From positions 1-28,372 of IMG/VR virus record IMGVR_UViG_2734482782_000001: a DNA stretch of 28,372 bases; one strand, written 5' to 3'. The notes below the pieces were generated by a model that worked only from the letters and a program-made list of their open reading frames with translations, searched no databases and was not told the origin of the DNA. Positions within the stretch are counted from its first letter, which is position 1, and every line of letters begins with the position of its first letter. The position numbers and the translations under genes are program-made. The DNA comes from a virus. Lineage: Duplodnaviria; Heunggongvirae; Uroviricota; Caudoviricetes. Positions 2,144 to 25,494 of this stretch are shown piece by piece.

Positions 2144-2497
2144 TTATGCCTCGCTGGTTACTGTCGTTGTTCCGTATATAGTGTCGATTTCAGCGAAGAA
2201 CTGGACGCGGCGCGTCGTCGTATTCACTGTCGTATTGAAAGAGAGAATGGATTTAACGCCCCGCGTTTCGAGGATGCGCTTACGGATCGCCAGGTTGTAG
2301 GTTTCCGGCTTCTGCTTACCGAGTACGGACTGAATCCACGGTGTCCCCTCTGTGGTGTCGAGAAACCACTGCCCATACCACAATTCGAATCGCGTTTTTA
2401 CAGCCTGCGCGACGGCCTCCGGTGAGTTAATCAGCCAGGTATCATCGCCGCTGCCAAAAGTGTAATCGCCGTCGTCGTCCTCACGTCGGTATCGCAT
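2144..2497 (-). CDS. Baseplate protein, GP46 / gp25(W)-like
   Basis: 117-aa ORF, ATG with GGGAGG RBS, immediately downstream of the V-like gene and upstream of J-like. Confidence 0.6.
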   Translation of the reverse strand: MRYRREDDDGDYTFGSGDDTWLINSPEAVAQAVKTRFELWYGQWFLDTTEGTPWIQSVLGKQKPETYNLAIRKRILETRGVKSILSFNTTVNTTTRRVQFFAEIDTIYGTTTVTSEA

Positions 2498-2499
2498 AA

Positions 2500-3153
2500 T
2501 TAGCCTCCCAGAGGTTTTGTATTGCTGCCGCCGCTTTCCACACCGCCATGCGTATGCTTATCAACGATTGAGCCATCCACCAGCTGCAGGCGGCCGTCAG
2601 ACAGAATTTTCAGGCCGTTCAGGTTGAACCCTCCCGGCGCGGTACCGGCTATAGCCCCACTTGAAGGATTAAGGCTCAGTTTGGTTCTGCCATCGTCGCT
2701 GCGCAGCTCAACCGCGCTGCCGCTGATGCCGCTGATTTTCTGCGCCTGCGACTGCGGTCCGACGATACAGAACGCATCCGATAAATCATGCACCCGGTCG
2801 TCGACAGGCTCCTGCACCCCGCCGTTCTGCCACCAGAAATCGATGCAGCGATCGGCGAAAATCACCAGGCATTCATCACCGGCTTTCACCGGGAACGTTA
2901 GCGTGCAGCCGCCGCCGCGTGGAAATATCACCGGCACATCCACCAGCAGCGGGTAATTTTTGGTAACGCGGTTGCCGTCGTTATCCGTTTCAACCGAACG
3001 AATAGCTGGCTGCACAACCGCCGTAACCGCGTCATGGTCGAATGACTGAACGATGCCAGGCAAAGCGACTCGGAGCTGGTTCTTTGTTGTGTCCCGCTCA
3101 GATTTGAATGTTTCGGCGAGGTCGCCGCTTCGGGTCTGGTCAGATACTGCCAT
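2500..3153 (-). CDS. Baseplate assembly protein V / central spike-like
   Basis: The track ORF 2500-3174 begins with TTG inside the terminator flank. The in-frame ATG at 3153 (MAVSDQTRSG...) is preceded by GGAGCC at good spacing, so I prefer that start. Size and position fit gpV-like. Confidence 0.6.
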   Translation of the reverse strand: MAVSDQTRSGDLAETFKSERDTTKNQLRVALPGIVQSFDHDAVTAVVQPAIRSVETDNDGNRVTKNYPLLVDVPVIFPRGGGCTLTFPVKAGDECLVIFADRCIDFWWQNGGVQEPVDDRVHDLSDAFCIVGPQSQAQKISGISGSAVELRSDDGRTKLSLNPSSGAIAGTAPGGFNLNGLKILSDGRLQLVDGSIVDKHTHGGVESGGSNTKPLGG

Positions 3154-3172
3154 TTGGTAGGCTCCAGAAAGC

Positions 3173-3198
3173 AAAAAACCCGCCGGGTGGCGGGTTTT
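3173..3198 (-). terminator. Rho-independent terminator closing the AT-rich cargo operon
   Basis: Plus strand reads AAAAAACCCGCCgggtGGCGGGTTTT: a GC stem CCCGCC/GGCGGG with a 4-nt loop. On the minus-strand transcript the stem is followed by a U6 run, directly after the stop of the 131-aa gene. Confidence 0.75.
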
Positions 3199-3217
3199 GC
3201 TAATTCACTGAATGAGT

Positions 3218-3613
3218 TTAAACAGCTTCGTCAGTCTTCATTTTTTCCCACTGAGAAAAAATAGTCTTAACCTCTAAGAGAGATTGCTGTGCCATTGCTT
3301 TATCAATTGCACAGCTAGTGAGGTCATAATCAGCTTCATTTCGAGCCAATCTCTGTTGCTCAAGTTTGTAAGCCATGGATTTTAGGCTTAATGGATCATA
3401 TGGCTCCAGTTTGTTTTCACTCTTATTTTTAAGATAAGAGATAAGGCTGGAATGATGATCCTTCGTATAAGCAGGAAGACTGGTCAGATTCTCTTTTATT
3501 TCATGGTAAAGCGCATAATATGCTCGCGAAATAGTATTACGATAACCAACCTCAGAATCTTCCGCAAAGCAACGCTCCGCAGAAGATAAAAATTCAGAGC
3601 TAGTTATAGGCAT
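3218..3613 (-). CDS. Hypothetical cargo protein, 131 aa, HEPN-like motifs
   Basis: ATG start with AAGGGTG RBS; overlaps the upstream 256-aa gene by 14 nt. About 35% GC by eye. Contains R30-x6-H37 (RAYYALYH) and R91-N-x3-Y96 (RNEADY), reminiscent of the HEPN Rx4-6H signature. Not confirmed by HMM. Confidence 0.7.
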   Translation of the reverse strand: MPITSSEFLSSAERCFAEDSEVGYRNTISRAYYALYHEIKENLTSLPAYTKDHHSSLISYLKNKSENKLEPYDPLSLKSMAYKLEQQRLARNEADYDLTSCAIDKAMAQQSLLEVKTIFSQWEKMKTDEAV

Positions 3614-4370
3614 ATTTACACCCTTTCAAGCTATTTCTTTCAACGGAAAAACGTGCAATAAGATTGCAATCATCCAGTAAATCGATTGAACAAATTTCAT
3701 CTGCAAGTCGCATATTCATTGCAACCACCTGCTCAGGGGATGCATTGACTACCTCAACCAGATAAGTCCCACCAGATGCACCGTTGATGTCAGCACGATA
3801 TTCAGTTGGCGGGAATTCAGCCATAACTCTATGAACAGCAAGAGCAACTTGCATGTATTGTTCTGAAGAGCAACCTGACTTTTTGTATGCTTCATCCATA
3901 TCGTGAATTACCTCCTGCAAGAAGGCTTCTGCGTCATCCCTATGTTCTTCTTGGGATAACATTTTGCAATGACGTCCAAAATATTCTACGCATTTTGATA
4001 GTTTCCCTACCAAATATGCAACGCCACCAGCCCTGTAAGTAAACCACTTGGTTGGATACTTATCAGCTAAAGAATAGATGTAGTAGTCCGATTTTTCGAG
4101 TAGAGAAAAACGCTCAAGCAGCTTACAAAAAATCCGCGCAAAGTTAACGTCAGCATGTGGGAGGATAGCTTCAAGCATTTCTATCCCGACACTCACCTCA
4201 CCTTTTGCAATATGAGCCAAAGCTACAAGCGTGTCAGCAGGCGGAGTATGCTTAGAGCCATATTCCGAAACCACCTCTCGAAAGGTCCAAATATCAAGAG
4301 GTTGACCACTATTGATTATCTTAACCAACTGGTCAAAACGCTCTTCCGCTTTCAGTTTTGGTCTTGCCAC
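3600..4370 (-). CDS. Hypothetical cargo protein, 256 aa, no recognisable motifs
   Basis: Long ORF in the AT-rich island. The first start codon after the in-frame upstream stop is GTG at 4370 with a weak SD, so the start is uncertain. No P-loop or nucleotidyltransferase motif seen. Confidence 0.65.
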   Translation of the reverse strand: MARPKLKAEERFDQLVKIINSGQPLDIWTFREVVSEYGSKHTPPADTLVALAHIAKGEVSVGIEMLEAILPHADVNFARIFCKLLERFSLLEKSDYYIYSLADKYPTKWFTYRAGGVAYLVGKLSKCVEYFGRHCKMLSQEEHRDDAEAFLQEVIHDMDEAYKKSGCSSEQYMQVALAVHRVMAEFPPTEYRADINGASGGTYLVEVVNASPEQVVAMNMRLADEICSIDLLDDCNLIARFSVERNSLKGCKYAYN

Positions 4371-4399
4371 AGTACGCTCGCTACTTATCTTTTGGTTGA

Positions 4400-4429
4400 A
4401 TTTTATGTTCGCGTATACAGTTTAGTCAA
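4400..4429 (-). promoter_or_regulatory. Candidate sigma70 promoter for the 256-aa/131-aa cargo operon
   Basis: On the minus strand: -35 TTGACT (4429-4424), 18-nt spacer, -10 TAAAAT (4405-4400), about 30 nt upstream of the GTG start at 4370. Confidence 0.45.
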
Positions 4430-4490
4430 TCCGAAGCTCATGCCGCTGAGCCGTTTCGCACAAAATCATCCATGCAAAAGGGATTGGACT

Positions 4491-4838
4491 TCAACCTGGC
4501 ACTTTCTTACACGGGAAAGAGCCGATGATTTTCGGCGCGTCCATGCTGTTCTGCAGCAGTTGGACGTTCAGGAAACGCGTTTCGGTACCAGGGCGATGGA
4601 TATACTCAAACCCATAGTTGTTGCCATCTTTAGCAGGCATTAGACCCATTTTGATCTGCATGCCTGTACCGTCTTTGCCCAACATTTTAACCTTTTGGGA
4701 TGTTACGGTTTCGCCATTGATTTTAAACAATGAGTCAGGGATCGCGTCCATACGAAAGTTACCACATTGCATCGTTATAGTGTTTGCACTTGCGCCAACA
4801 GACGCTAACGCCAGCAATGAAAAAATCCATCGTTTCAT
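4491..4838 (-). CDS. Small secreted protein with Sec signal peptide (cargo)
   Basis: The track ORF starts further upstream, but the internal ATG at 4838 gives MKRWIFSLLALASVGASA|NT..., a classic n/h/c signal peptide with an A-S-A cleavage site. GAGGGGG RBS sits 10 nt upstream; the start lies 2 nt after the hub stop. About 40-48% GC. Confidence 0.65.
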   Translation of the reverse strand: MKRWIFSLLALASVGASANTITMQCGNFRMDAIPDSLFKINGETVTSQKVKMLGKDGTGMQIKMGLMPAKDGNNYGFEYIHRPGTETRFLNVQLLQNSMDAPKIIGSFPCKKVPG

Positions 4839-4840
4839 TT

Positions 4841-5905
4841 CTATAACCCCCTCTGCAATGCAGTGCTCGATGGCATATCCTGCGCGCCACGCGCTTCGCA
4901 CATCATATCCATATACCACGCTTGGCCCCTTGTGTCGCCAGTGTACATAATCCCACGCACAATATAAACGCCATCCGTTGCGATGCTGGCAGGCTGCGCC
5001 GTGGTACCGCTGAGCGTGATATTGCCGTCTGTATTCTGGTCGGTGATGCGGCCCCCAGCCATCGCGATATCGTTGTTCGACAGTGCGGTGCGGAATACCG
5101 AAGCCTGATCCAGCTGAATGAGTCCGTTAACCCGGATGTTCGGGTTTATCAGCGCACGGACGTTCACGCCGTTGCCGATGGTCTGCTGCGGCATGCCGAT
5201 AAGCCCGGTGGCGCTGTTGAGCACAATCGCGTCGTGAACATACTCGTTATTCGCCACCATCTGGCGCTGGCCGTCCACGAACTGCCATGTTGCGCCACAT
5301 TGCCCGGCCACGTTATCCATAAGATGCCGTGTCATGCCGAACAGCACCCTGCCCCGGGGAAAAACGGTAGCAGGCATTTCAGGCGTCAGGCCTTCGGTCG
5401 CGCCTTTGGCCTCGAAGTCTTTCATCAGCGCGCGGTTCACGTCTGCGACCGTATAACCGGCCGCCAGCGTCTGCGAGGTTATGCTGGTGGCAAAGGCCAG
5501 ATCTGTATCGGCTGCCTGAATCAGGACGTAGGAATCAATGGGGCTGTCTTTTCCTGTGACCGAGTAACGAATTTCGCCGCTAAAAATCAGACCGTAGTTC
5601 CGGCCATCACTCTGGCCCACGTCCGCCGCGTCAACCTCCCGCACGGTCCCGACGTCGCTTGCCGATACCTCCGGCGCGATACCGTCGTAACCGGCAATTA
5701 GCCGCACCTTAGAAAACTCCTGCCCGGTGATGCGGTTCACCGTATCTGCCGAGAGGTTGTAGATTTTGAACGTTCCCACCCGGGACGCGCTGCTGATGTT
5801 GAACCAGTCGATCGTAAAGGTCACTTTAAAATCGCTGAGCTCAATACCCTGCCCGTTCTCGTCCACGAGCTGCAGCTCGAAATGTCTCATCCAGTTCTGC
5901 GACAT
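4841..5905 (-). CDS. Baseplate hub / tail protein (P2 gpD / Mu gp44-like position)
   Basis: 354-aa ORF, ATG start, high GC, placed after the tape measure and small tail proteins. Confidence 0.55.
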   Translation of the reverse strand: MSQNWMRHFELQLVDENGQGIELSDFKVTFTIDWFNISSASRVGTFKIYNLSADTVNRITGQEFSKVRLIAGYDGIAPEVSASDVGTVREVDAADVGQSDGRNYGLIFSGEIRYSVTGKDSPIDSYVLIQAADTDLAFATSITSQTLAAGYTVADVNRALMKDFEAKGATEGLTPEMPATVFPRGRVLFGMTRHLMDNVAGQCGATWQFVDGQRQMVANNEYVHDAIVLNSATGLIGMPQQTIGNGVNVRALINPNIRVNGLIQLDQASVFRTALSNNDIAMAGGRITDQNTDGNITLSGTTAQPASIATDGVYIVRGIMYTGDTRGQAWYMDMMCEARGAQDMPSSTALQRGL

Positions 5906-5907
5906 GC

Positions 5908-6210
5908 TTACTCCGTTGATACCAGTAAATGACTGCGGCCGCCCAGGTCGGTTTTCGTCGGATAATCCTGTGTGCTGTCGTCACAGACCACCACCAGCTT
6001 AAAGCCGAGCCCCATATAGCCGTACTGCGCCAGCAGGTCAGCGCCCGTAACGAGAGGAATACCAGAGATTACCGGCTCCCCTCTGTCGTTCTGCAGGTCC
6101 ATAATCCAGTACAGATCGCGCCAGGTGATGCTAATCCGCCAGGTGGTCCCCGCCAGGATGATGCTGAATTGCTGGTTATCCGCTGTCAGCGGGATTTCCT
6201 GAATTGCCAT
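5908..6210 (-). CDS. Small tail protein
   Basis: 100-aa ORF, ATG start, TAATG coupling with the upstream gene. Confidence 0.5.
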   Translation of the reverse strand: MAIQEIPLTADNQQFSIILAGTTWRISITWRDLYWIMDLQNDRGEPVISGIPLVTGADLLAQYGYMGLGFKLVVVCDDSTQDYPTKTDLGGRSHLLVSTE

Positions 6211-6797
6211 TAGCCGAGCCCCAGTAATGACGCCGCGTTACCCGTGATGCTTTTCAGCAGCGAGGTATTTGGCGGCTTTGTGGTTTTGGTGCCGGTATTC
6301 AGTACCGCCGACGTGCTGGCCCCGTCCTTCATGTTGGTTTTATCCGCGACGGTGATCTGCTGCGTCTGCGAGATAAGAACCTCCCTCAGGGTGAGGACGG
6401 CGGACAGGACGTTTTCGGTTGTCTTGTCTGTCGTCACTTCCATCGCGCGGATCAGCATGTTGCTGTACAGCCGTTTGCCGGTCACCACATCGAAAGGGAT
6501 ACGGCTCGCCTGCAGGTCGAGTATCTCCTGATACGTCTGCTGGGGGCTCAGACCGAGCAGACTGGTGGCCGTCAGGTTACTGGCAAAATCCAGCAACGAT
6601 CCGCCACCAGCGAAACCGACCTCCATCACCACTTCAGACGGTTTTTTGTAGGCATGGTCAGCGATAGCGGCCCCGACCTCGACAGGGTGCTCTGTTATCT
6701 CCAGCGTGTCGGTATGCTTCTCAGAAACAACCACACTGGGGACAATCATCCCTATTTTCCGGCTCTGCTGCTGAAAGAGCGTAGAGAGAATATCCAT
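6210..6797 (-). CDS. Tail protein downstream of the tape measure
   Basis: 195-aa ORF, ATG start, TAATG coupling with the TMP stop. Confidence 0.5.
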   Translation of the reverse strand: MDILSTLFQQQSRKIGMIVPSVVVSEKHTDTLEITEHPVEVGAAIADHAYKKPSEVVMEVGFAGGGSLLDFASNLTATSLLGLSPQQTYQEILDLQASRIPFDVVTGKRLYSNMLIRAMEVTTDKTTENVLSAVLTLREVLISQTQQITVADKTNMKDGASTSAVLNTGTKTTKPPNTSLLKSITGNAASLLGLG

Positions 6798-8806
6798 TAG
6801 CCCACCTTCGTTTGATTACCGCGCATGACCTGGGCGTTTGCCGACTGCTGCCGACGCTCGACCTCGGTACCGACAGAACGCGGGTCACCACCACCGTAGA
6901 TGTGATAGGTGTTTTGTTGCTGTACCTGCGCTCCCTTCCCGGGCATGTTACTCAACACCTTAGGAATGTAGTTGCGGGTTTCCTGCGGCATCAGGGCCAT
7001 TCCGTGCTTCTGCACGTTCCCGATCCCCCAGTTGTATGAGGCCAGCGCCTTGCTCAGGTCACCACCGTTAGCTTTCAGCAGCTGTGAGAGATATTTAGCA
7101 GCGGCCTGCGCGGCCTTTTCAGGATTGAATACGTCGTTCCCGCGCAGTCCCATATCACGCGCGGTACCGTCCATAAACTGAAACAGCCCTTTAGCGCCAG
7201 CGCCTGAAACAGCGAACTGATTTCCGCCCGATTCCGTTATGGCCACGCTGCGCAATAACCCCTCCGGAAGCCGATAGAGCTGCTCCAGGTTGGTTAGCAT
7301 GGGCTGCATCCATCCCAGCAGCTCAGAGCCCGCTTTGGTTGGCTGTGGCCGCTTGACTGACTGGCCGAGCTGTTCAGGCTCATCATCACCAAACCAGCCG
7401 CGCACCGTTCGGCCCACACTGCGAGGATCGAATCCCCAGTGCTCTTTAATCCAGTCGGCGGTACCGTTGGCGCTGTCTGTTACCATCGGCATCGCTGACG
7501 GATTTTCGCTGCCCTGATTGAGCATCTGTTTGCCGATGCTGGCGGCATCAGCCCAGCGGCCATCTTTAATGGCGTTGAGCAGGTCGGCGATCATATTCAG
7601 CATTTTGCTGAACTCGCCCATCTGGTCCCTGAAGTTGCTGAAATCCCACTTCAGGGACCATGATTTGGGGTCAATATTGAGCAGTTTCGCCAGCGCTTTC
7701 GCAAGGTCGTTAACGGTCGTTTTAAGGTCACGAACCATCTTCAGCGCGGCGTCGACTTCCGGTTTCCACTTGCCCCAGTCGATAAGGCTGTCGCCGCCCT
7801 CCTTCCAGGTCTGATAGTCCTCCCACAGAAGGGCAATCCCCGCCGCCAGCGCGGTAATAAGGCCAATCGGCGACATCCAGAACGTACTGTTCAGAATGCG
7901 TAGCGCAATCGTCAGCGCGCCAAACAGCGAGATCAGCTCCCGCGTTTGCTTGTCGAGTGATTGCCACCAGGTGATAAGGCTGGATGTTCCCTCAATAAGC
8001 CTGAAGAACAGCCGTCCGATGATGTCCCCGAGTGCCAGAATGCCTTTTATGGCTTTCGTCAGGGTCTGCTCGATACGCGGGAAGTTATCCAGGATATGAC
8101 GGCGCAGCGTGTCCAGCGAACCCGCCAGGCCACCAGCAAGATTAGAGCCGATTTTGTCACGGGCCATGCCTGCCATCGCGCCGAACTCGCGCAGGGAGGT
8201 CATGAATTTGTTGGAGCTTCTGGCCGCCTCGTCAGCATTGAAGCCGATAGCCTTCGCCATTGCGCTGTACTGCCCGGAGAAACCGCCAACACCCCGGCGC
8301 ATCGCCATGAGGGTATTTTCGTCAATGCCCAGCATCTGCGCATACTGGTTAGCCCGGTAGTACGGCATGCTGCTGAGCTTCTGGCCGACACCCGTAAAGA
8401 TAGCGGCCATATCGCGCATGTTACCGCTGGCGTCACGGGTCTGTACACCCAGGCGATTCAGGAAGCCTTCCGCACCCGGATTGTTACGAACAAACCGGGA
8501 GAGGCTTTCCAGAGAGGAGCGCGCCGCGTCTACGCTGCCGCCTACCTGCGAAACCGCATAGCCAATAGACTGAATCCCCTGAACCGTCGCGCCGGTGCGC
8601 TGTGACGCCCAGTAGAGATTATCCAGACCGGAGGCGATTTTAGCCGTAAAGGCCACCACAGTAAGCGCGGCACCTTCGACGGCCAGCCCCATTTTGATGG
8701 CGTTTGCGGTCGTACCTGCGAGAACTGAATCGAACTTTTCCGCGCCTGCTTCGTCGATATCGAAACCGAGCGAGACGAGAAAATCTTTAATAGTCTCAGC
8801 GTTCAT
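6797..8806 (-). CDS. Tail tape measure protein with C-terminal lytic transglycosylase (SLT)-like domain
   Basis: 669-aa ORF, ATG with GGAGAGAGG RBS. Alanine/glycine-rich helical N-terminal half, a hydrophobic segment (LISLFGALTIALRIL...GLITALAAGIALLW), and a C-terminal ...AITESGGNQFAVSGAGAKGLFQF...YNWG segment resembling SLT catalytic motifs. Lies downstream of the chaperone with frameshift. Confidence 0.75.
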   Translation of the reverse strand: MNAETIKDFLVSLGFDIDEAGAEKFDSVLAGTTANAIKMGLAVEGAALTVVAFTAKIASGLDNLYWASQRTGATVQGIQSIGYAVSQVGGSVDAARSSLESLSRFVRNNPGAEGFLNRLGVQTRDASGNMRDMAAIFTGVGQKLSSMPYYRANQYAQMLGIDENTLMAMRRGVGGFSGQYSAMAKAIGFNADEAARSSNKFMTSLREFGAMAGMARDKIGSNLAGGLAGSLDTLRRHILDNFPRIEQTLTKAIKGILALGDIIGRLFFRLIEGTSSLITWWQSLDKQTRELISLFGALTIALRILNSTFWMSPIGLITALAAGIALLWEDYQTWKEGGDSLIDWGKWKPEVDAALKMVRDLKTTVNDLAKALAKLLNIDPKSWSLKWDFSNFRDQMGEFSKMLNMIADLLNAIKDGRWADAASIGKQMLNQGSENPSAMPMVTDSANGTADWIKEHWGFDPRSVGRTVRGWFGDDEPEQLGQSVKRPQPTKAGSELLGWMQPMLTNLEQLYRLPEGLLRSVAITESGGNQFAVSGAGAKGLFQFMDGTARDMGLRGNDVFNPEKAAQAAAKYLSQLLKANGGDLSKALASYNWGIGNVQKHGMALMPQETRNYIPKVLSNMPGKGAQVQQQNTYHIYGGGDPRSVGTEVERRQQSANAQVMRGNQTKVG

Positions 8807-21066: not shown

Positions 21067-22071
21067 TCAGTCTAAATCCATCTCCACCACTTCACCGAAC
21101 AGGTGACCGTAAACGTCCATTGTGGTTTTGATGTTCGAATGCCCAATAAGTCGGGAAACCTTCAGAATATCGACGCCTTTGTTTGCCAGGCGAGATACAG
21201 CAAAGTGGCGAAGATGATGGAATCGTTTAATGCCATAGTCGTTCAGGGTTCTGACGAGAACGCCCTGAGTGCCGTAGCTGGTAGCAAGGCATGCGCCGGT
21301 AAACTGGTTGCAGATAAGAGGCTCAGAGGTACCGAGTTTACTTTTATCCAGCAACGCGAAAAGCTCACGCGGCATCCGTACCCGGCGCTCCACTCCTCTT
21401 TTCAGCCCCTCATGTATAACGCCGTCAACAACATGCCCCCGGATGTCGATCCAGTCGGCTGACACGTCGTTATAAGTAACAGCCAGAGCCTCACCGATGC
21501 GCAGGCCACAAATCCCGAGCCAGCACGCGATTCGCTCACGAACTGGCGCGTTATTCAGTAGCTCCCTGACCGATGATGATGGCGGTATGGTGATGGGTCG
21601 ACGCTTCCGGCGCGCGGGACGGTCAACAGGGTTAAAAGTGATGAGCCGTTTTTCCACCAGCAGGAAGAAAGCCGAACGAATCCAGCGATGGCAGCCGGTG
21701 CGAACCGAATCAACGATATCGCGATGGCTGATATGGAGAATATTTTTTTCCAGTATCGGCCCGTCTACAGCGAGAAGATCGTGACGGCATTTCGTATATG
21801 ACGACAGCCGTATGATATTTTTTTCCAGCTTGCCGGCCTGATACCCCAGATAAAACAGAATTAACTTTCGGAAAGTCCAGGAATGGTCTATTCCGGTCCA
21901 GCTGGCAGTTCGACAATCCAGCTCGATATTCTGTTTTTGCCAGAAAAGATGTGCGGCATCATCAATATTCTTAAAAATGCGGCGGCGTCCATGACCGGAT
22001 TTTTCATCCTTCCAGTGGACGTAATATTTTGATTGTCCATTGGCATCAGTGGATTCTTTTATCGAAGCCAT
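21067..22071 (-). CDS. int: Tyrosine-type site-specific recombinase / integrase
   Basis: The track starts at TTG 22080; the ATG at 22071 has a GAGGA RBS 9 nt upstream. C-terminal HLRHFAVSRL and GHSNIKTTMDVYGHL match the H-x-x-R and catalytic Tyr pattern of the tyrosine recombinase family. Confidence 0.8.
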   Translation of the reverse strand: MASIKESTDANGQSKYYVHWKDEKSGHGRRRIFKNIDDAAHLFWQKQNIELDCRTASWTGIDHSWTFRKLILFYLGYQAGKLEKNIIRLSSYTKCRHDLLAVDGPILEKNILHISHRDIVDSVRTGCHRWIRSAFFLLVEKRLITFNPVDRPARRKRRPITIPPSSSVRELLNNAPVRERIACWLGICGLRIGEALAVTYNDVSADWIDIRGHVVDGVIHEGLKRGVERRVRMPRELFALLDKSKLGTSEPLICNQFTGACLATSYGTQGVLVRTLNDYGIKRFHHLRHFAVSRLANKGVDILKVSRLIGHSNIKTTMDVYGHLFGEVVEMDLD

Positions 22072-22250
22072 GCTGAACAATCCTCACTCAAAAAACATTA
22101 TCAAAGCCACTCGCCGAATGGATTTGATAATGCTAATAAAAATGTCTCGGAAGCTATCCTTCTGTGCTCCCAATCAAGCTTTGCCGTTGCACCCTCATCA
22201 TATGAAAAAGTTCATGATACATTATGCTTTTATCAACTGAGGTGATCGCG

Positions 22251-22502
22251 ATGTCTGAACTCGAAAGTAGAGTTAATGAACTTGAAACAGAAAATGAAGA
22301 ATTGAAGTTAGAAATTCAAGCTTTGCGAATTGCAGTGGTAACTATCTCTTCTGTCGTAAACGAGGCTGTCGGCAAAACGGCTGGCTTAATGGGTAACACC
22401 ATTGAGGAAAGTTTGATTTTTGATGAAGACTTAGACCAAGATGAAGAGCGCTTCAACAAAATGAAATCAAAATTAGTTCACCTTTTAGGCAAAAAAGAGT
22501 AG
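22251..22502 (+). CDS. Small acidic coiled-coil protein, function unknown
   Basis: Only convincing plus-strand gene. ATG at 22251 with GAGGTGA RBS (the track's upstream ATG at 22224 has no SD). 83 aa, glutamate-rich heptad pattern (ELESRVNELETENEELKLEIQALR). AT-rich; convergent with the lysis operon. Confidence 0.6.
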   Translation: MSELESRVNELETENEELKLEIQALRIAVVTISSVVNEAVGKTAGLMGNTIEESLIFDEDLDQDEERFNKMKSKLVHLLGKKE

Positions 22503-22533
22503 TAACCACCTTTCCCTCTTGTTTTTAATAAAA

Positions 22534-22558
22534 TCGTCGCCAGCAGTGACTGGCGGCG
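22534..22558 (-). terminator. Terminator-like hairpin between convergent Rz and the plus-strand small gene
   Basis: 9-bp stem CGTCGCCAG/CTGGCGGCG with one mismatch; on the minus transcript it is followed by AUUUUAUUAAAAA. Confidence 0.45.
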
Positions 22559-22572
22559 AAATTGACTTATGT

Positions 22573-23118
22573 TTATTTCCTTTCATCCTCTATTTGACGT
22601 ATTCCAGCCAGCTGATTATTCGCTTTTTCGATGGCGGCCAGTAGCGGCTTGATCCAAAGAACAGCCTGGCAATACGTCAGCGAGCTGGTGGAAGCGGCAC
22701 TATCACCGGCTGCGTCAGCGCTCCCGGAATCGGTGTGCATTGCGCTGGCACGTAGACGGTGCGTGTATTCGAGCAGCCCACCAGCGACATCAGCAGGAAC
22801 AGGCAGATCACAGGTTTTTTCACGGCGGAGAATCTCCCGGTACTCCATAACAGTTTTATCGGAGCTGGCATCAATCAATGAGTTAAGTCGGCTGGCGTTT
22901 TCGGCCACCTGGTTAAACCGGTTGAAGTTGAAAGCCTGAGCAGCGATAACCGTCCCCTGCAGGTTGTTGTCACTGCGCAGAACGTCATTATCACTCTTCA
23001 GCGTAGCAACGTCAGAGCGGCTGTTTGCAAGCAGGACACACAGCCCGGCGACTACCGCAATGACGGCAACCAGCAGTATCAGACGCCATGAGGCTTTGAT
23101 ATCTGTAAAGGTGATCAT
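22573..23118 (-). CDS. Rz-like inner-membrane spanin (i-spanin)
   Basis: 181-aa ORF, ATG overlapping the endolysin stop (ATGA). N-terminal TM helix WRLILLVAVIAVVAGLCVLLA followed by a periplasmic helical domain. Last gene of the lysis cassette. Confidence 0.7.
   Translation of the reverse strand: MITFTDIKASWRLILLVAVIAVVAGLCVLLANSRSDVATLKSDNDVLRSDNNLQGTVIAAQAFNFNRFNQVAENASRLNSLIDASSDKTVMEYREILRREKTCDLPVPADVAGGLLEYTHRLRASAMHTDSGSADAAGDSAASTSSLTYCQAVLWIKPLLAAIEKANNQLAGIRQIEDERK
22677..22871 (-). CDS. Rz1-like outer-membrane lipoprotein spanin (o-spanin), embedded in Rz in another frame
   Basis: ORF entirely inside Rz. Lipobox L-V-G-C preceded by a hydrophobic stretch (KKPVICLFLLMSLVGC); proline-rich mature part (PAQCTPIPGALTQPVIVPLPPAR). 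Start codon uncertain. Confidence 0.55.
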   Translation of the reverse strand: MPAPIKLLWSTGRFSAVKKPVICLFLLMSLVGCSNTRTVYVPAQCTPIPGALTQPVIVPLPPAR

Positions 23119-23639
23119 TTCAGACCATCCAGGCAGAGCTGTTTCTCTGCGTCGCGCCGCTTAACCAGGCCCGGGAGAATAGTCTTCCCTGCATACACCC
23201 AGCGGGGGAACTGGTTACAGGCCGATGGCCACGCCGATTTCTGCTCGCGAAATAATGCAAACATTGTCGACTGCTTCATCGTTGGGCACCCGACGTTAAA
23301 GGTAATTGACGTTACCGCAGAAAAGGTATTGTCGCTGAGATTTTTGCCGTTGGCATACCGGTTAACACAGGATTCAGCATCGAGGATATTTTTTTCCCAT
23401 TCCGCCGCGATCTGCTGGTCATTTTTAACTGTGCCGGGTTTAACCCCGTGGGTGTTGCCCATGCCATCGGTGAGCACACCGGCGGGGCACACATAAGGAT
23501 CACGACGACATGATTCCGCATTACCGATGAGCTCAAGGCCGCGCTCATTGGTTCGAACATGCCCGTTACCGAGCACTATCGCGATGATCGCAGCAACTGA
23601 ACAAACAATACCCGCAGCACCTGCCTTTTTATTTTGCAT
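23115..23639 (-). CDS. SAR endolysin (T4-lysozyme-like, phage 21 R-type)
   Basis: 174 aa, ATG start. N-terminal weakly hydrophobic Gly/Ala-rich signal-anchor AGAAGIVCSVAAIIAIVLG, then a lysozyme-like domain. C-terminal RWVYAGKTILPGLVKRRDAEKQLCL resembles the phage-21 lysozyme C-terminus recalled from memory. Confidence 0.7.
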   Translation of the reverse strand: MQNKKAGAAGIVCSVAAIIAIVLGNGHVRTNERGLELIGNAESCRRDPYVCPAGVLTDGMGNTHGVKPGTVKNDQQIAAEWEKNILDAESCVNRYANGKNLSDNTFSAVTSITFNVGCPTMKQSTMFALFREQKSAWPSACNQFPRWVYAGKTILPGLVKRRDAEKQLCLDGLK

Positions 23640-24690: not shown

Positions 24691-25494
24691 CTAAATTTTG
24701 TTCACATCATCACGAAAGCTCGTTGCGTCCTGAAACGCCGAGTCTGCTTTTTGTTCTTCTCTGTAGCAGACGTCGACAAGCCCCTCCAGAAACGGTTTCC
24801 AGTTACGGGTCCACGTTCTGACGTGCAGATCCGGGACTCGCTTCAGTATCGCTTTATAGGCTGCAGTAGACGGCACCCCAGAAAATCCATTTCCGCTGCA
24901 GCGCTCGCAGGTTTTAAACACCGGCGCGCCGCGCTCGCTTGTGGCTTTGCGGTCGAGCACCTCACCTTTGCCACCGCAACGGCATCGAGCCAGTAGCTCA
25001 CCTTTACCGTTACATGCCGCGCATGTACGCTTGACCAGTTCGTGCTTGATTTTCGGCGGTACGATTTCCATTCCGTCAGAGTTGAATATTCCAGGATATT
25101 TGATCACATCCTCATACTGAGAGGTTAATCCGCTGCCGCTGCAGCTGTGACACGTCACGCTGGTTTCCGCTGAACGGGAGTATTCTGCAAAGGCGAATTG
25201 TGCGAGCACCAGCATGCACCAGCCAAACTCTCCTGCAGCTGCTTTACGTACATTCCTGGGCGCTGATTCCATTGCATGACGCGCCAGAGCCTGTACAGCC
25301 AACTGCTCATCGCTTTTGCTGATCCCGGTCTTACCAAAGAATGCAGCCAGACCAAACCGCGCGCGGCTGCTGGTGGTACCAATGGCCGCCATAACATCGG
25401 TGCCAGTGATACGATCTGGAGAGGTTCCTTTCACGTCGTCGCTGATGTGCATCCCCTGAGGGCTGAAGTGTTTAAGTGAAGCTTCCAGTTTCAT
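24691..25494 (-). CDS. Putative late-gene antiterminator (Q-like) with DnaJ-type zinc finger
   Basis: 267 aa, ATG overlapping the primase stop (ATGA). Four CxxCxGxG-type motifs (CHSCSGSG, CAACNGKG, CRCGGKG, CERCSGNG). Sits immediately upstream of a promoter/terminator unit and the lysis genes. Confidence 0.5.
   Translation of the reverse strand: MKLEASLKHFSPQGMHISDDVKGTSPDRITGTDVMAAIGTTSSRARFGLAAFFGKTGISKSDEQLAVQALARHAMESAPRNVRKAAAGEFGWCMLVLAQFAFAEYSRSAETSVTCHSCSGSGLTSQYEDVIKYPGIFNSDGMEIVPPKIKHELVKRTCAACNGKGELLARCRCGGKGEVLDRKATSERGAPVFKTCERCSGNGFSGVPSTAAYKAILKRVPDLHVRTWTRNWKPFLEGLVDVCYREEQKADSAFQDATSFRDDVNKI

Follow-up and report, generated by a model that had tools for sequence, protein, structure and literature searches.

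A candidate HEPN toxin and its TPR-like partner in a cargo hotspot of the baseplate operon of enterobacterial myophages

Neutralization in the HEPN–MNT systems, in which a HEPN protein is paired with a minimal nucleotidyltransferase (MNT), proceeds by AMPylation. Defence hotspots are carried by P2-like phages and P4 satellites (Rousset et al. 2022, PMC9122126), and the Z/fun hotspot lies next to the baseplate and tail genes of P2 (bioRxiv 10.1101/2024.10.15.618418). Here we analysed a 28,372-nucleotide stretch of DNA from a virus of the Caudoviricetes (IMG/VR record IMGVR_UViG_2734482782_000001, positions 1 to 28,372; the whole stretch is called the window below), whose baseplate operon carries an AT-rich cassette of two overlapping genes, coding for a 256-amino-acid (aa) protein like those built of tetratricopeptide repeats (TPR) and for a 131-aa HEPN-domain protein. 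The pair is, in concept, a new version of known kinds, namely of HEPN toxin systems and of prophage cargo hotspots. We read it as a toxin–antitoxin-type anti-phage module of an undescribed HEPN toxin/TPR partner type, lodged in a hotspot for morons (cargo genes), and give this reading a probability of about 0.6.

Like the HEPN/MNT pair of Aphanizomenon (PDB 7ae2, 7ae6 and 7ae8), the pair in the window has a small HEPN protein of about 130 aa as the second gene of a tightly coupled two-gene operon, and this protein is likewise of the AF0298/UPF0332 sequence type with a strictly conserved Tyr after the Arg motif. But the partner in the window is not an MNT: it shows no nucleotidyltransferase match in Pfam and no conserved G-S...D-x-D signature, and neutralization by AMPylation is therefore unlikely here. 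An MNT was considered for the C-terminal domain of the partner and rejected, because no acidic pair or G-S motif is kept across its subtypes. The fold is TPR-like plus beta-beta-alpha-beta. Since the partner is not a nucleotidyltransferase, the pair is not a HEPN–MNT system. By its description, system DS-28 of DefensePredictor also looks different, as a 163-aa HEPN nuclease comes first and a hypothetical protein second, so that both gene order and HEPN size differ. The Avs/STAND sensors with TPRs and the fused toxin–antitoxins of the CapRel type offer a functional analogy, as they couple a rapidly evolving repeat domain to a conserved toxic effector; unlike these, the pair in the window lacks a nucleoside triphosphatase domain and divides the functions between two separate small proteins, of which one may by analogy be a sensor.

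As to its setting, the locus resembles the morons of HK97 and HK022 (Juhala et al. 2000; HK97 gp15), which are patchily distributed genes of deviant composition within the late structural operon, with a promoter and a terminator on either side and a phage Q antiterminator, but here the terminator belongs to the phage backbone, is common to every cargo type and is not borne by the moron. It also resembles the hotspots of P2-like phages and P4, where toxin–antitoxin or defence cassettes of many kinds occupy one fixed slot between conserved genes and their exchange does not follow the backbone. The phage family differs, however, and in the window the slot lies between the hub with a small secreted-protein gene on one side and the spike on the other.

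Cargo and backbone between the hub and spike genes

The slot between the gene of the small secreted-type protein (115 aa), which follows the baseplate hub gene, and the central spike gene (coordinates in Table 1) is a cargo (moron) hotspot. Our locus set comprised 45 genome loci and 80 IMG/VR loci retrieved by hub similarity; the loci parsed numbered 133, each holding both hub and spike. In 14 of the 133 the slot is empty, and elsewhere it holds 44 different clusters of open reading frames (ORFs). Among the relatives without cargo, the spike directly follows the 115-aa gene in 11 loci and the hub in 3. Cargo is, as for morons, present at the same site in some close relatives and absent in others. 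All 119 slots of at least 300 nt have a G+C content (GC) below that of their own hub (mean difference -0.14). The second most common occupant is a YafO toxin (PF13957, E = 9.7e-18) with its partner (13-14 loci); other cargo includes PD-Lambda-1 (PADLOC, E = 2.8e-82), a transmembrane Mrr-like nuclease (PDC-S02), PDC-S42, a secreted protein with an OB fold and several membrane proteins. Low GC together with such variable cargo is the signature of a prophage hotspot for defence and toxin–antitoxin genes, as known from P2 and P4 (PMC9122126; 10.1101/2024.10.15.618418).

A sequence-only reading of the window had described an AT-rich island of three genes, with its own promoter and terminator, inside the baseplate operon. 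The AT-rich block itself is plain both in sliding windows and gene by gene. GC in 300-nt windows is 0.39-0.47 at about 3150-4850, against 0.55-0.60 on either side, and GC and GC at third codon positions are 0.384/0.318 for the 131-aa gene, 0.425/0.362 for the 256-aa gene and 0.463/0.526 for the 115-aa gene, whereas the hub has 0.577/0.715 and the spike 0.576/0.642. Between the 115-aa gene and the spike, a stretch of 1337 nt has a GC of 0.418, with z = -4.6 relative to every other stretch of that length in the 28-kb window (minimum 0.455). The three ORFs of this trough lie where that reading had placed them, all on the minus strand, and the 256-aa gene (GTG start) and the 131-aa gene (ATG start) do overlap by 14 nt.

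The borders of the exchanged DNA are narrower than those of the trough. In blastn comparisons with relatives carrying other cargo or none, homology is lost at window positions 3195-3199 and regained at 4489-4503, so that the exchanged DNA covers about 3200-4488, that is, the promoter and the two overlapping genes. This promoter and two-gene cassette is the only part exchanged between related phages. The proposal of a horizontally exchanged and independently promoted cargo within the baseplate operon thus holds for the cassette, given its breakpoints, its exchange and a promoter of conserved position, but not for the 115-aa gene, which stands directly after the hub in about 122 of the 133 relatives, including those with empty or differently filled slots, and at whose stop codon homology resumes. 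That all three genes and the terminator were acquired together as one island is scarcely credible: the GC of all three genes is below that of their flanks, but relatives with different or no cargo keep the small gene and the terminator, the breakpoints exclude both from the exchanged segment, and only the most distant relatives (L053, L059 and L063) lack the small gene, so that its acquisition, if there was one, would be a separate and older event.

The start codon of the 115-aa gene is 2 nt past the hub stop codon, with a Shine-Dalgarno-like run, GAGGGGG, inside the 3' end of the hub gene, and the 115-aa gene therefore looks like a late backbone gene. In ten annotated relatives the order is constant (10/10): hub, a signal-peptide protein of 110-118 aa, variable genes, spike. 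The small-protein orthologues of these ten share two invariant Cys and the motif ...LNVQLLQNSMDAPK...C, and the GC of their genes is 0.39-0.48 in all ten; the gene is conserved in relatives, yet its GC stays low, and the two cassette genes are not conserved. One orthologue is named 'STY1065/STY2022 family phage-derived protein' at NCBI, and the 115-aa protein has no match in Pfam or PDB and none to a structural family. The variable genes of the ten relatives are YafO with its partner, DUF2335, DUF4282, DUF4236 (on the opposite strand) and hypothetical pairs or singletons. Six of the 133 loci, from Salmonella and Trabulsiella, carry a different 153-aa secreted protein in place of the small one, and five carry neither. 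The 153-aa protein is unrelated to the 115-aa protein (loci cited: L011-L015, L027 and L117), and the site after the hub seems to be a second slot, older than the other, where periplasmic proteins can be exchanged.

The strong intrinsic terminator noted at the cassette end does exist, as a hairpin with a T-run at 3198-3175, and has a 10-bp stem (6 GC pairs), a 4-nt loop and an RNA folding energy of -22.5 kcal/mol (z = -3.0). It cannot be called the module's own. In 113 of the 133 loci, the 80 nt next to the spike start contain a hairpin with a T-run; among these loci are empty slots (L092, L102 and L113) and the three distant loci without the small gene. In E. coli relatives, ACCCGCC-loop-GGCGGGTTTTTTGCTTTCTGGAGCCTAC-AAATG stands ahead of the spike irrespective of cargo. 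As the hairpin is found even without cargo, cargo has been inserted upstream of a pre-existing terminator inside the operon. This terminator, together with the Q antiterminator of the phage, suggests a built-in docking point that insulates any cargo placed upstream. The corrected anatomy, in which the secreted-protein gene and the intra-operon terminator are fixed phage parts, matters for cargo hunting in this slot.

The pair as a mobile and polymorphic module

With hidden Markov models built from the slot proteins, the partner was found in 53 of the 120 occupied slots, with the HEPN protein alongside in 52 of the 53 and the HEPN protein alone in none. Diverged versions of the pair thereby fill 40% of the sampled slots. 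The spacing of the two genes is -20 to +1 nt in 47 pairs; this translationally coupled gene pair, whose members are nearly always together, has the generic organization of a type II toxin–antitoxin system. The only partner-only locus of the 53 is that of Yersinia phage YP3 (L002, positions 2475-3275), an isolated phage with a 266-aa partner.

Clustering at 60% identity separates 14 partner subtypes and 9 HEPN subtypes. Pairwise identities of the partners co-vary with those of the HEPN proteins (Pearson 0.98, Spearman 0.70) but are uncorrelated with hub identity (rho 0.01), and in phages whose hubs are more than 95% identical the median identity of the partners is 19%. Divergence is faster in the partner than in the HEPN protein (mean identity 0.30 against 0.40). 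The subtype of the window occurs at the same position and with the same 14-nt overlap in prophages of Salmonella, Yersinia and Rosenbergiella, and the same cassette, about 97% identical, is present in enteropathogenic E. coli (EPEC) E2348/69 (E2348C_RS13345/RS13350).

The near-consensus sigma-70 promoter proposed from the sequence, TTGACT-18-TAAAAT, is indeed present ahead of the pair and conserved in position. It is identical in the E. coli and Salmonella copies of the cassette, and in cassette subtypes whose proteins are only 25-57% identical a -35/-10 pair ends 28-33 nt before the start codon (TTGACT-18-TAAAAT, TTGATA-18-TAAATT, TTGGTG-18-TAGAAT, TTGAAA-17-TAGAAT, TTGACT-18-TAGAAT, TTGACG-18-TAGAAT and TTGACG-17-CACAAT). 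A single 10/12 match is not significant on its own, as the region holds 5 promoter-like sites against 4.3 expected, but that this position is kept across diverged subtypes supports a real promoter, which is presumably active.

The pair is also found away from the baseplate. The cassette genes are not conserved baseplate components, being absent in about 60% of the relatives, belonging to PHROGs of no known function and occurring outside baseplate operons too. In Kosakonia, a distant pair (270 + 130 aa) stands at the integrase end of a P2/186-like prophage, with the integrase on one side and the chromosome on the other; in E. coli, another (271 + 127 aa) adjoins the integrase of a different prophage, and UniProt names a CFT073 member of this cluster 'Tetratricopeptide repeat protein'; a degenerate lambdoid prophage has a third (252 + 128 aa). 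Since pairs lie outside baseplate operons, the module is self-contained and independent of the baseplate. This bears on the idea, drawn by analogy with VgrG-linked type VI effectors, that the HEPN protein is a cargo loaded onto the spike for injection and the TPR protein its chaperone. The cassette does lie immediately upstream of the spike gene, and the TPR region of the partner is weakly like the type III secretion chaperones PcrH and SycD (Foldseek E = 0.28-0.82). But the pair stands beside integrases in prophages where no baseplate is near, it is AT-rich with a promoter of its own, it is absent from 60% of close relatives with near-identical hub and spike genes, and the alternative cargo consists of toxin–antitoxin and defence genes. 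We consider a spike-associated injected effector highly improbable, and disfavour it because the pair also adjoins integrases.

A selfish toxin–antitoxin addiction module, which would stabilize itself or its prophage by post-segregational killing and give no protection against other phages, would account for the type II organization, the strict pairing with one partner-only and no HEPN-only locus, and the rank of the YafO toxin–antitoxin pair as second most common occupant of the slot. We nevertheless regard it as unlikely, as a validated defence system, PD-Lambda-1, and nuclease candidates are also found in the slot, the pair is present in integrase-proximal cargo sites of other prophages as well, and defence has proved to be the role of many toxin–antitoxin systems at sites of this kind.

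The pair matched no system model in PADLOC-DB v2.0.0, where the distant partners P0035 and P0039 had no match either, and it is unnamed in Pfam, NCBIfam, PADLOC v2 and PHROGs; its accessions are not listed in the DefensePredictor supplements. In the searchable literature we found no paper on the pair (WP_000113596, WP_001123212) or on the hotspot.

The HEPN protein, its partner and a possible defence function

The 131-aa protein belongs to the HEPN superfamily, and its sequence places it in the AF0298/UPF0332-like (HEPN-T) clade. It has few close homologues: 5.8 billion proteins yielded 10 clusters, all of them from Enterobacterales. A narrow family profile (A1) gave marginal HEPN matches only against PDB (0.022), and matches became significant once the diverged subtypes were added (profile A4: 9xbd, 4.4e-10; 9xbc, 3.3e-9; 2hsb, which is AF0298 of UPF0332, 2e-6). 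PF05168 (HEPN) is matched by 5 of 16 members, with a best E value of 2e-6. An AlphaFold2 (AF2) model shows a five-helix bundle with a predicted local distance difference test (pLDDT) score of 75.5, and its top two Foldseek matches in PDB are the HEPN proteins 2hsb (prob 0.98, TM 0.63-0.65) and 2q00, with E values of only 0.5-0.75. The best PDB match, 9xbd, is named 'HEPN domain-containing protein', and 9xbc is the same protein with Phe for the motif Tyr, the motif being RNRSDF instead of RNRSDY. Those who deposited the entries evidently examined the residue that corresponds to the invariant Y96 of our family; we found no paper on 9XBD or 9XBC in the literature.

Among 16 diverse members, E21, R25, R30, Y32, Y33, H54, R91, D95 and Y96 are invariant. 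The HEPN-like motifs reported in the sequence-only reading therefore need qualification: membership of the HEPN family is borne out by the profile and structure matches, but the canonical Rx4-6H is replaced by an AF0298-type variant that reads R91-N-E-A-D95-Y96, and all 16 lack a His at +4 to +6. H54 is at the start of the third predicted helix (model residues 50-63). AF0298-like HEPN-T proteins retain the Arg but not the His, and a further conserved His, N-terminal to the motif and between helices 2 and 3, has been proposed as an alternative active site (Anantharaman et al. 2013, PMC3710099). The retained R91, the replacement of the His by D95-Y96 and the conserved H54 fit this clade, and catalysis is predicted to proceed via Arg91 and the alternative His54.

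The partner is modelled by AF2 with a mean pLDDT of 87 and a predicted template modelling score of 0.84, the residues up to about 185 forming ten helices that pair as in TPRs. Its best Foldseek matches in PDB are generic TPR proteins (MamA, E = 0.01, ahead of PcrH and SycD), none with E < 0.001, and in BFVD it matches two uncharacterized phage proteins of similar length (E = 2.6e-4 and 4.9e-4), which are probably members of the family. It has no match in Pfam, NCBIfam or PADLOC; distant members have weak TPR matches in Pfam. A kinesin-light-chain repeat match of the partner covered a single repeat and was not taken as homology, and ATC_hydrolase (E = 0.05), which came up in the family searches of the three proteins, was dismissed. 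The close relatives of the partner form 11 clusters, and its profile recovered only 62 relatives from 1.84 billion representative proteins, nearly all of 244-286 aa. As had been remarked from the sequence, none of the three proteins is recognizable as structural: searches of Pfam, NCBIfam and PHROGs gave no tail structural family, and the PHROGs of the two cassette proteins (5176 and 17809) are of unknown function. We propose that the partner is the neutralizer or sensor of the HEPN protein.

The pair might instead serve the phage itself in a non-toxic accessory function (host takeover, counter-defence or regulation), with the HEPN protein as a non-catalytic binder of RNA or protein and the TPR protein as adaptor. 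The missing canonical His, the sense orientation of the cassette within the Q-dependent late operon, which implies late expression too, and the generic role of TPR domains as interaction modules all agree with this. We think it quite unlikely, since subtypes with only 21-40% identity elsewhere all keep R91, D95, Y96 and H54, a sign of a conserved active site, and since a separate sigma-70-like promoter is conserved and the module is dispensable, slots being empty or otherwise filled.

A toxin or abortive-infection role is the best reading of the pair. The gene organization, the strict pairing, the co-divergence of the two proteins, the HEPN homology and the defence genes found as alternative cargo are the grounds for a defence function; from these we infer a protein complex, toxicity, a ribonuclease (RNase) activity, a trigger and a defence phenotype. 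In the lysogen, the cassette promoter would drive both genes, and transcripts would end at the backbone terminator before the spike. During lytic growth, late transcription antiterminated by Q would pass the terminator (3175-3198), a read-through to be expected from what is known of lambdoid Q proteins. The 131-aa HEPN protein would be an RNase toxin using Arg91 and the alternative His54, and the 256-aa TPR-like protein would bind it and keep it inactive. Infection by another phage would then disturb the partner, either by a trigger acting on the TPR surface or by loss of the partner, and the freed HEPN protein would cut RNA, so that the infection is aborted.

Several observations weigh against this reading. 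The cassette is co-oriented with the late operon, so that its products would also be made in the phage's own lytic cycle and may have a role there. No helix-turn-helix or other DNA-binding domain was found in the partner in Pfam searches or in the AF2 model, the protein is larger than typical antitoxins, and there is no operator-like palindrome at the cassette promoter. By itself the 131-aa protein of the window is below the Pfam HEPN threshold, its only PADLOC match is a weak one to HEPN_IX (E = 0.0089), and with the canonical catalytic His missing it could be a non-catalytic binder. The sample is biased as well, being made up of the 80 best IMG/VR hub matches, one genome per species and hand-picked loci.

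A bolder and more tentative version of the defence reading is that the pair is a previously unrecognized, highly polymorphic anti-phage system in which the TPR protein has replaced MNT as the controller of HEPN-T and directly senses phage proteins, the subtype diversity reflecting an arms race. Worldwide, the pair forms about 60 clusters at 50% identity, with at least 14 partner and 9 HEPN subtypes seen. If the defence reading is true, the slot would be a new defence hotspot in a prophage family of about 7% of complete E. coli genomes, and the pair a new two-gene HEPN system with a TPR regulator in place of a nucleotidyltransferase, bearing on how HEPN toxins without the canonical His are controlled and activated. 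Testing is eased by the presence of the cassette in the model pathogen EPEC E2348/69 and of an annotated, diverged version in uropathogenic CFT073.

The phage family and other features of the window

The host of the slot is a widespread family of temperate enterobacterial myophages, SEN34/Mulock-like in type, with an E217-type sheath, a PhiTE-type tube and a Pam3-type plug. Its backbone is found in 355 of 5426 complete E. coli genomes (about 7%), and the family is present in many other Enterobacterales. The nearest hub sequence is that of a Citrobacter genome (99% identical), and related phages include Salmonella SEN34, Klebsiella Mulock, Yersinia YP3 and induced E. coli prophages. Upstream of the hub in the window lie the plug gene and the gene of a Dit-like protein.

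Table 1. Positions of the cassette, its flanking genes and the regulatory elements in the window
Feature	Position	Strand	Remarks
Central spike gene	2500-3153	minus	Pfam spike N-terminal domain E = 6e-43 and Apex motif; conserved downstream flank
Intrinsic terminator	3169-3198	minus	stem 3198-3175 and T-run; about 20 nt upstream of spike ATG; downstream slot border
Swapped cargo cassette	3200-4488	minus	promoter and two overlapping genes; about 1.29 kb
131-aa HEPN-domain protein, AF0298/UPF0332 (HEPN-T) type	3218-3613	minus	ATG; PHROG of unknown function; proposed RNase toxin/effector
256-aa partner protein	3600-4370	minus	GTG; TPR-like repeats at about 6-185 and small C-terminal beta-beta-alpha-beta domain at about 190-243; PHROG 17809
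Sigma-70-like promoter TTGACT-18-TAAAAT	4429-4400	minus	10/12 consensus positions; -10 ends 29 nt before GTG
115-aa secreted-type protein gene	4491-4838	minus	N-terminal signal-peptide-like sequence, two invariant Cys; PHROG 3443, function unknown
Baseplate hub gene	4841-5905	minus	PHROG 196 baseplate hub E = 1.2e-88; PF22759 E = 5.8e-5; conserved upstream flank
Q-type antiterminator gene	24691-25494	minus	PF03589 Antiterm E = 4.1e-51; upstream of lysozyme/lysis and late genes

The spike gene starts at the ATG at 3153, as had been assumed, with an N-terminus (MAVSDQ...) common to relatives. A truncation of its 5' end by the insertion was considered and ruled out, because the N-terminus is identical to that of relatives and only the C-terminal allele differs. 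There are at least two spike alleles, one of 217 aa with the Apex motif, as in the window, and one of about 250 aa (L001, L003, L011 and others); they are only 56-67% identical, yet the hubs next to them reach 95-100% identity, which makes the hotspot a junction for recombination between baseplate modules as well.

One Salmonella locus (L014, GCA_026711365.1, positions 2613-8031) has the genes for Dit, plug, hub, secreted protein, TPR partner and HEPN protein flanked by two transposase genes of the IS26 type, each copy coding for 234 aa with rve and DDE_Tnp_IS240 domains. Beyond this segment the tape-measure and tube genes are inverted, and a Tn3-family transposase is nearby. The arrangement looks like a prophage rearrangement mediated by insertion sequences.

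A second and milder GC dip (0.448) occupies 22001-23000 of the window and corresponds to the intergenic stretch 22080-22573 and a 181-aa ORF (22573-23118). This ORF has no Pfam match and adjoins a phage lysozyme gene (23115-23639), and may be another accessory or lysis-associated gene. On the same strand, a 337-aa protein (21067-22080) with a Phage_integrase domain (E = 2.6e-15) is encoded with the lysis genes on one side and the presumed genes for terminase and head on the other, which is an unusual position for a tyrosine recombinase.

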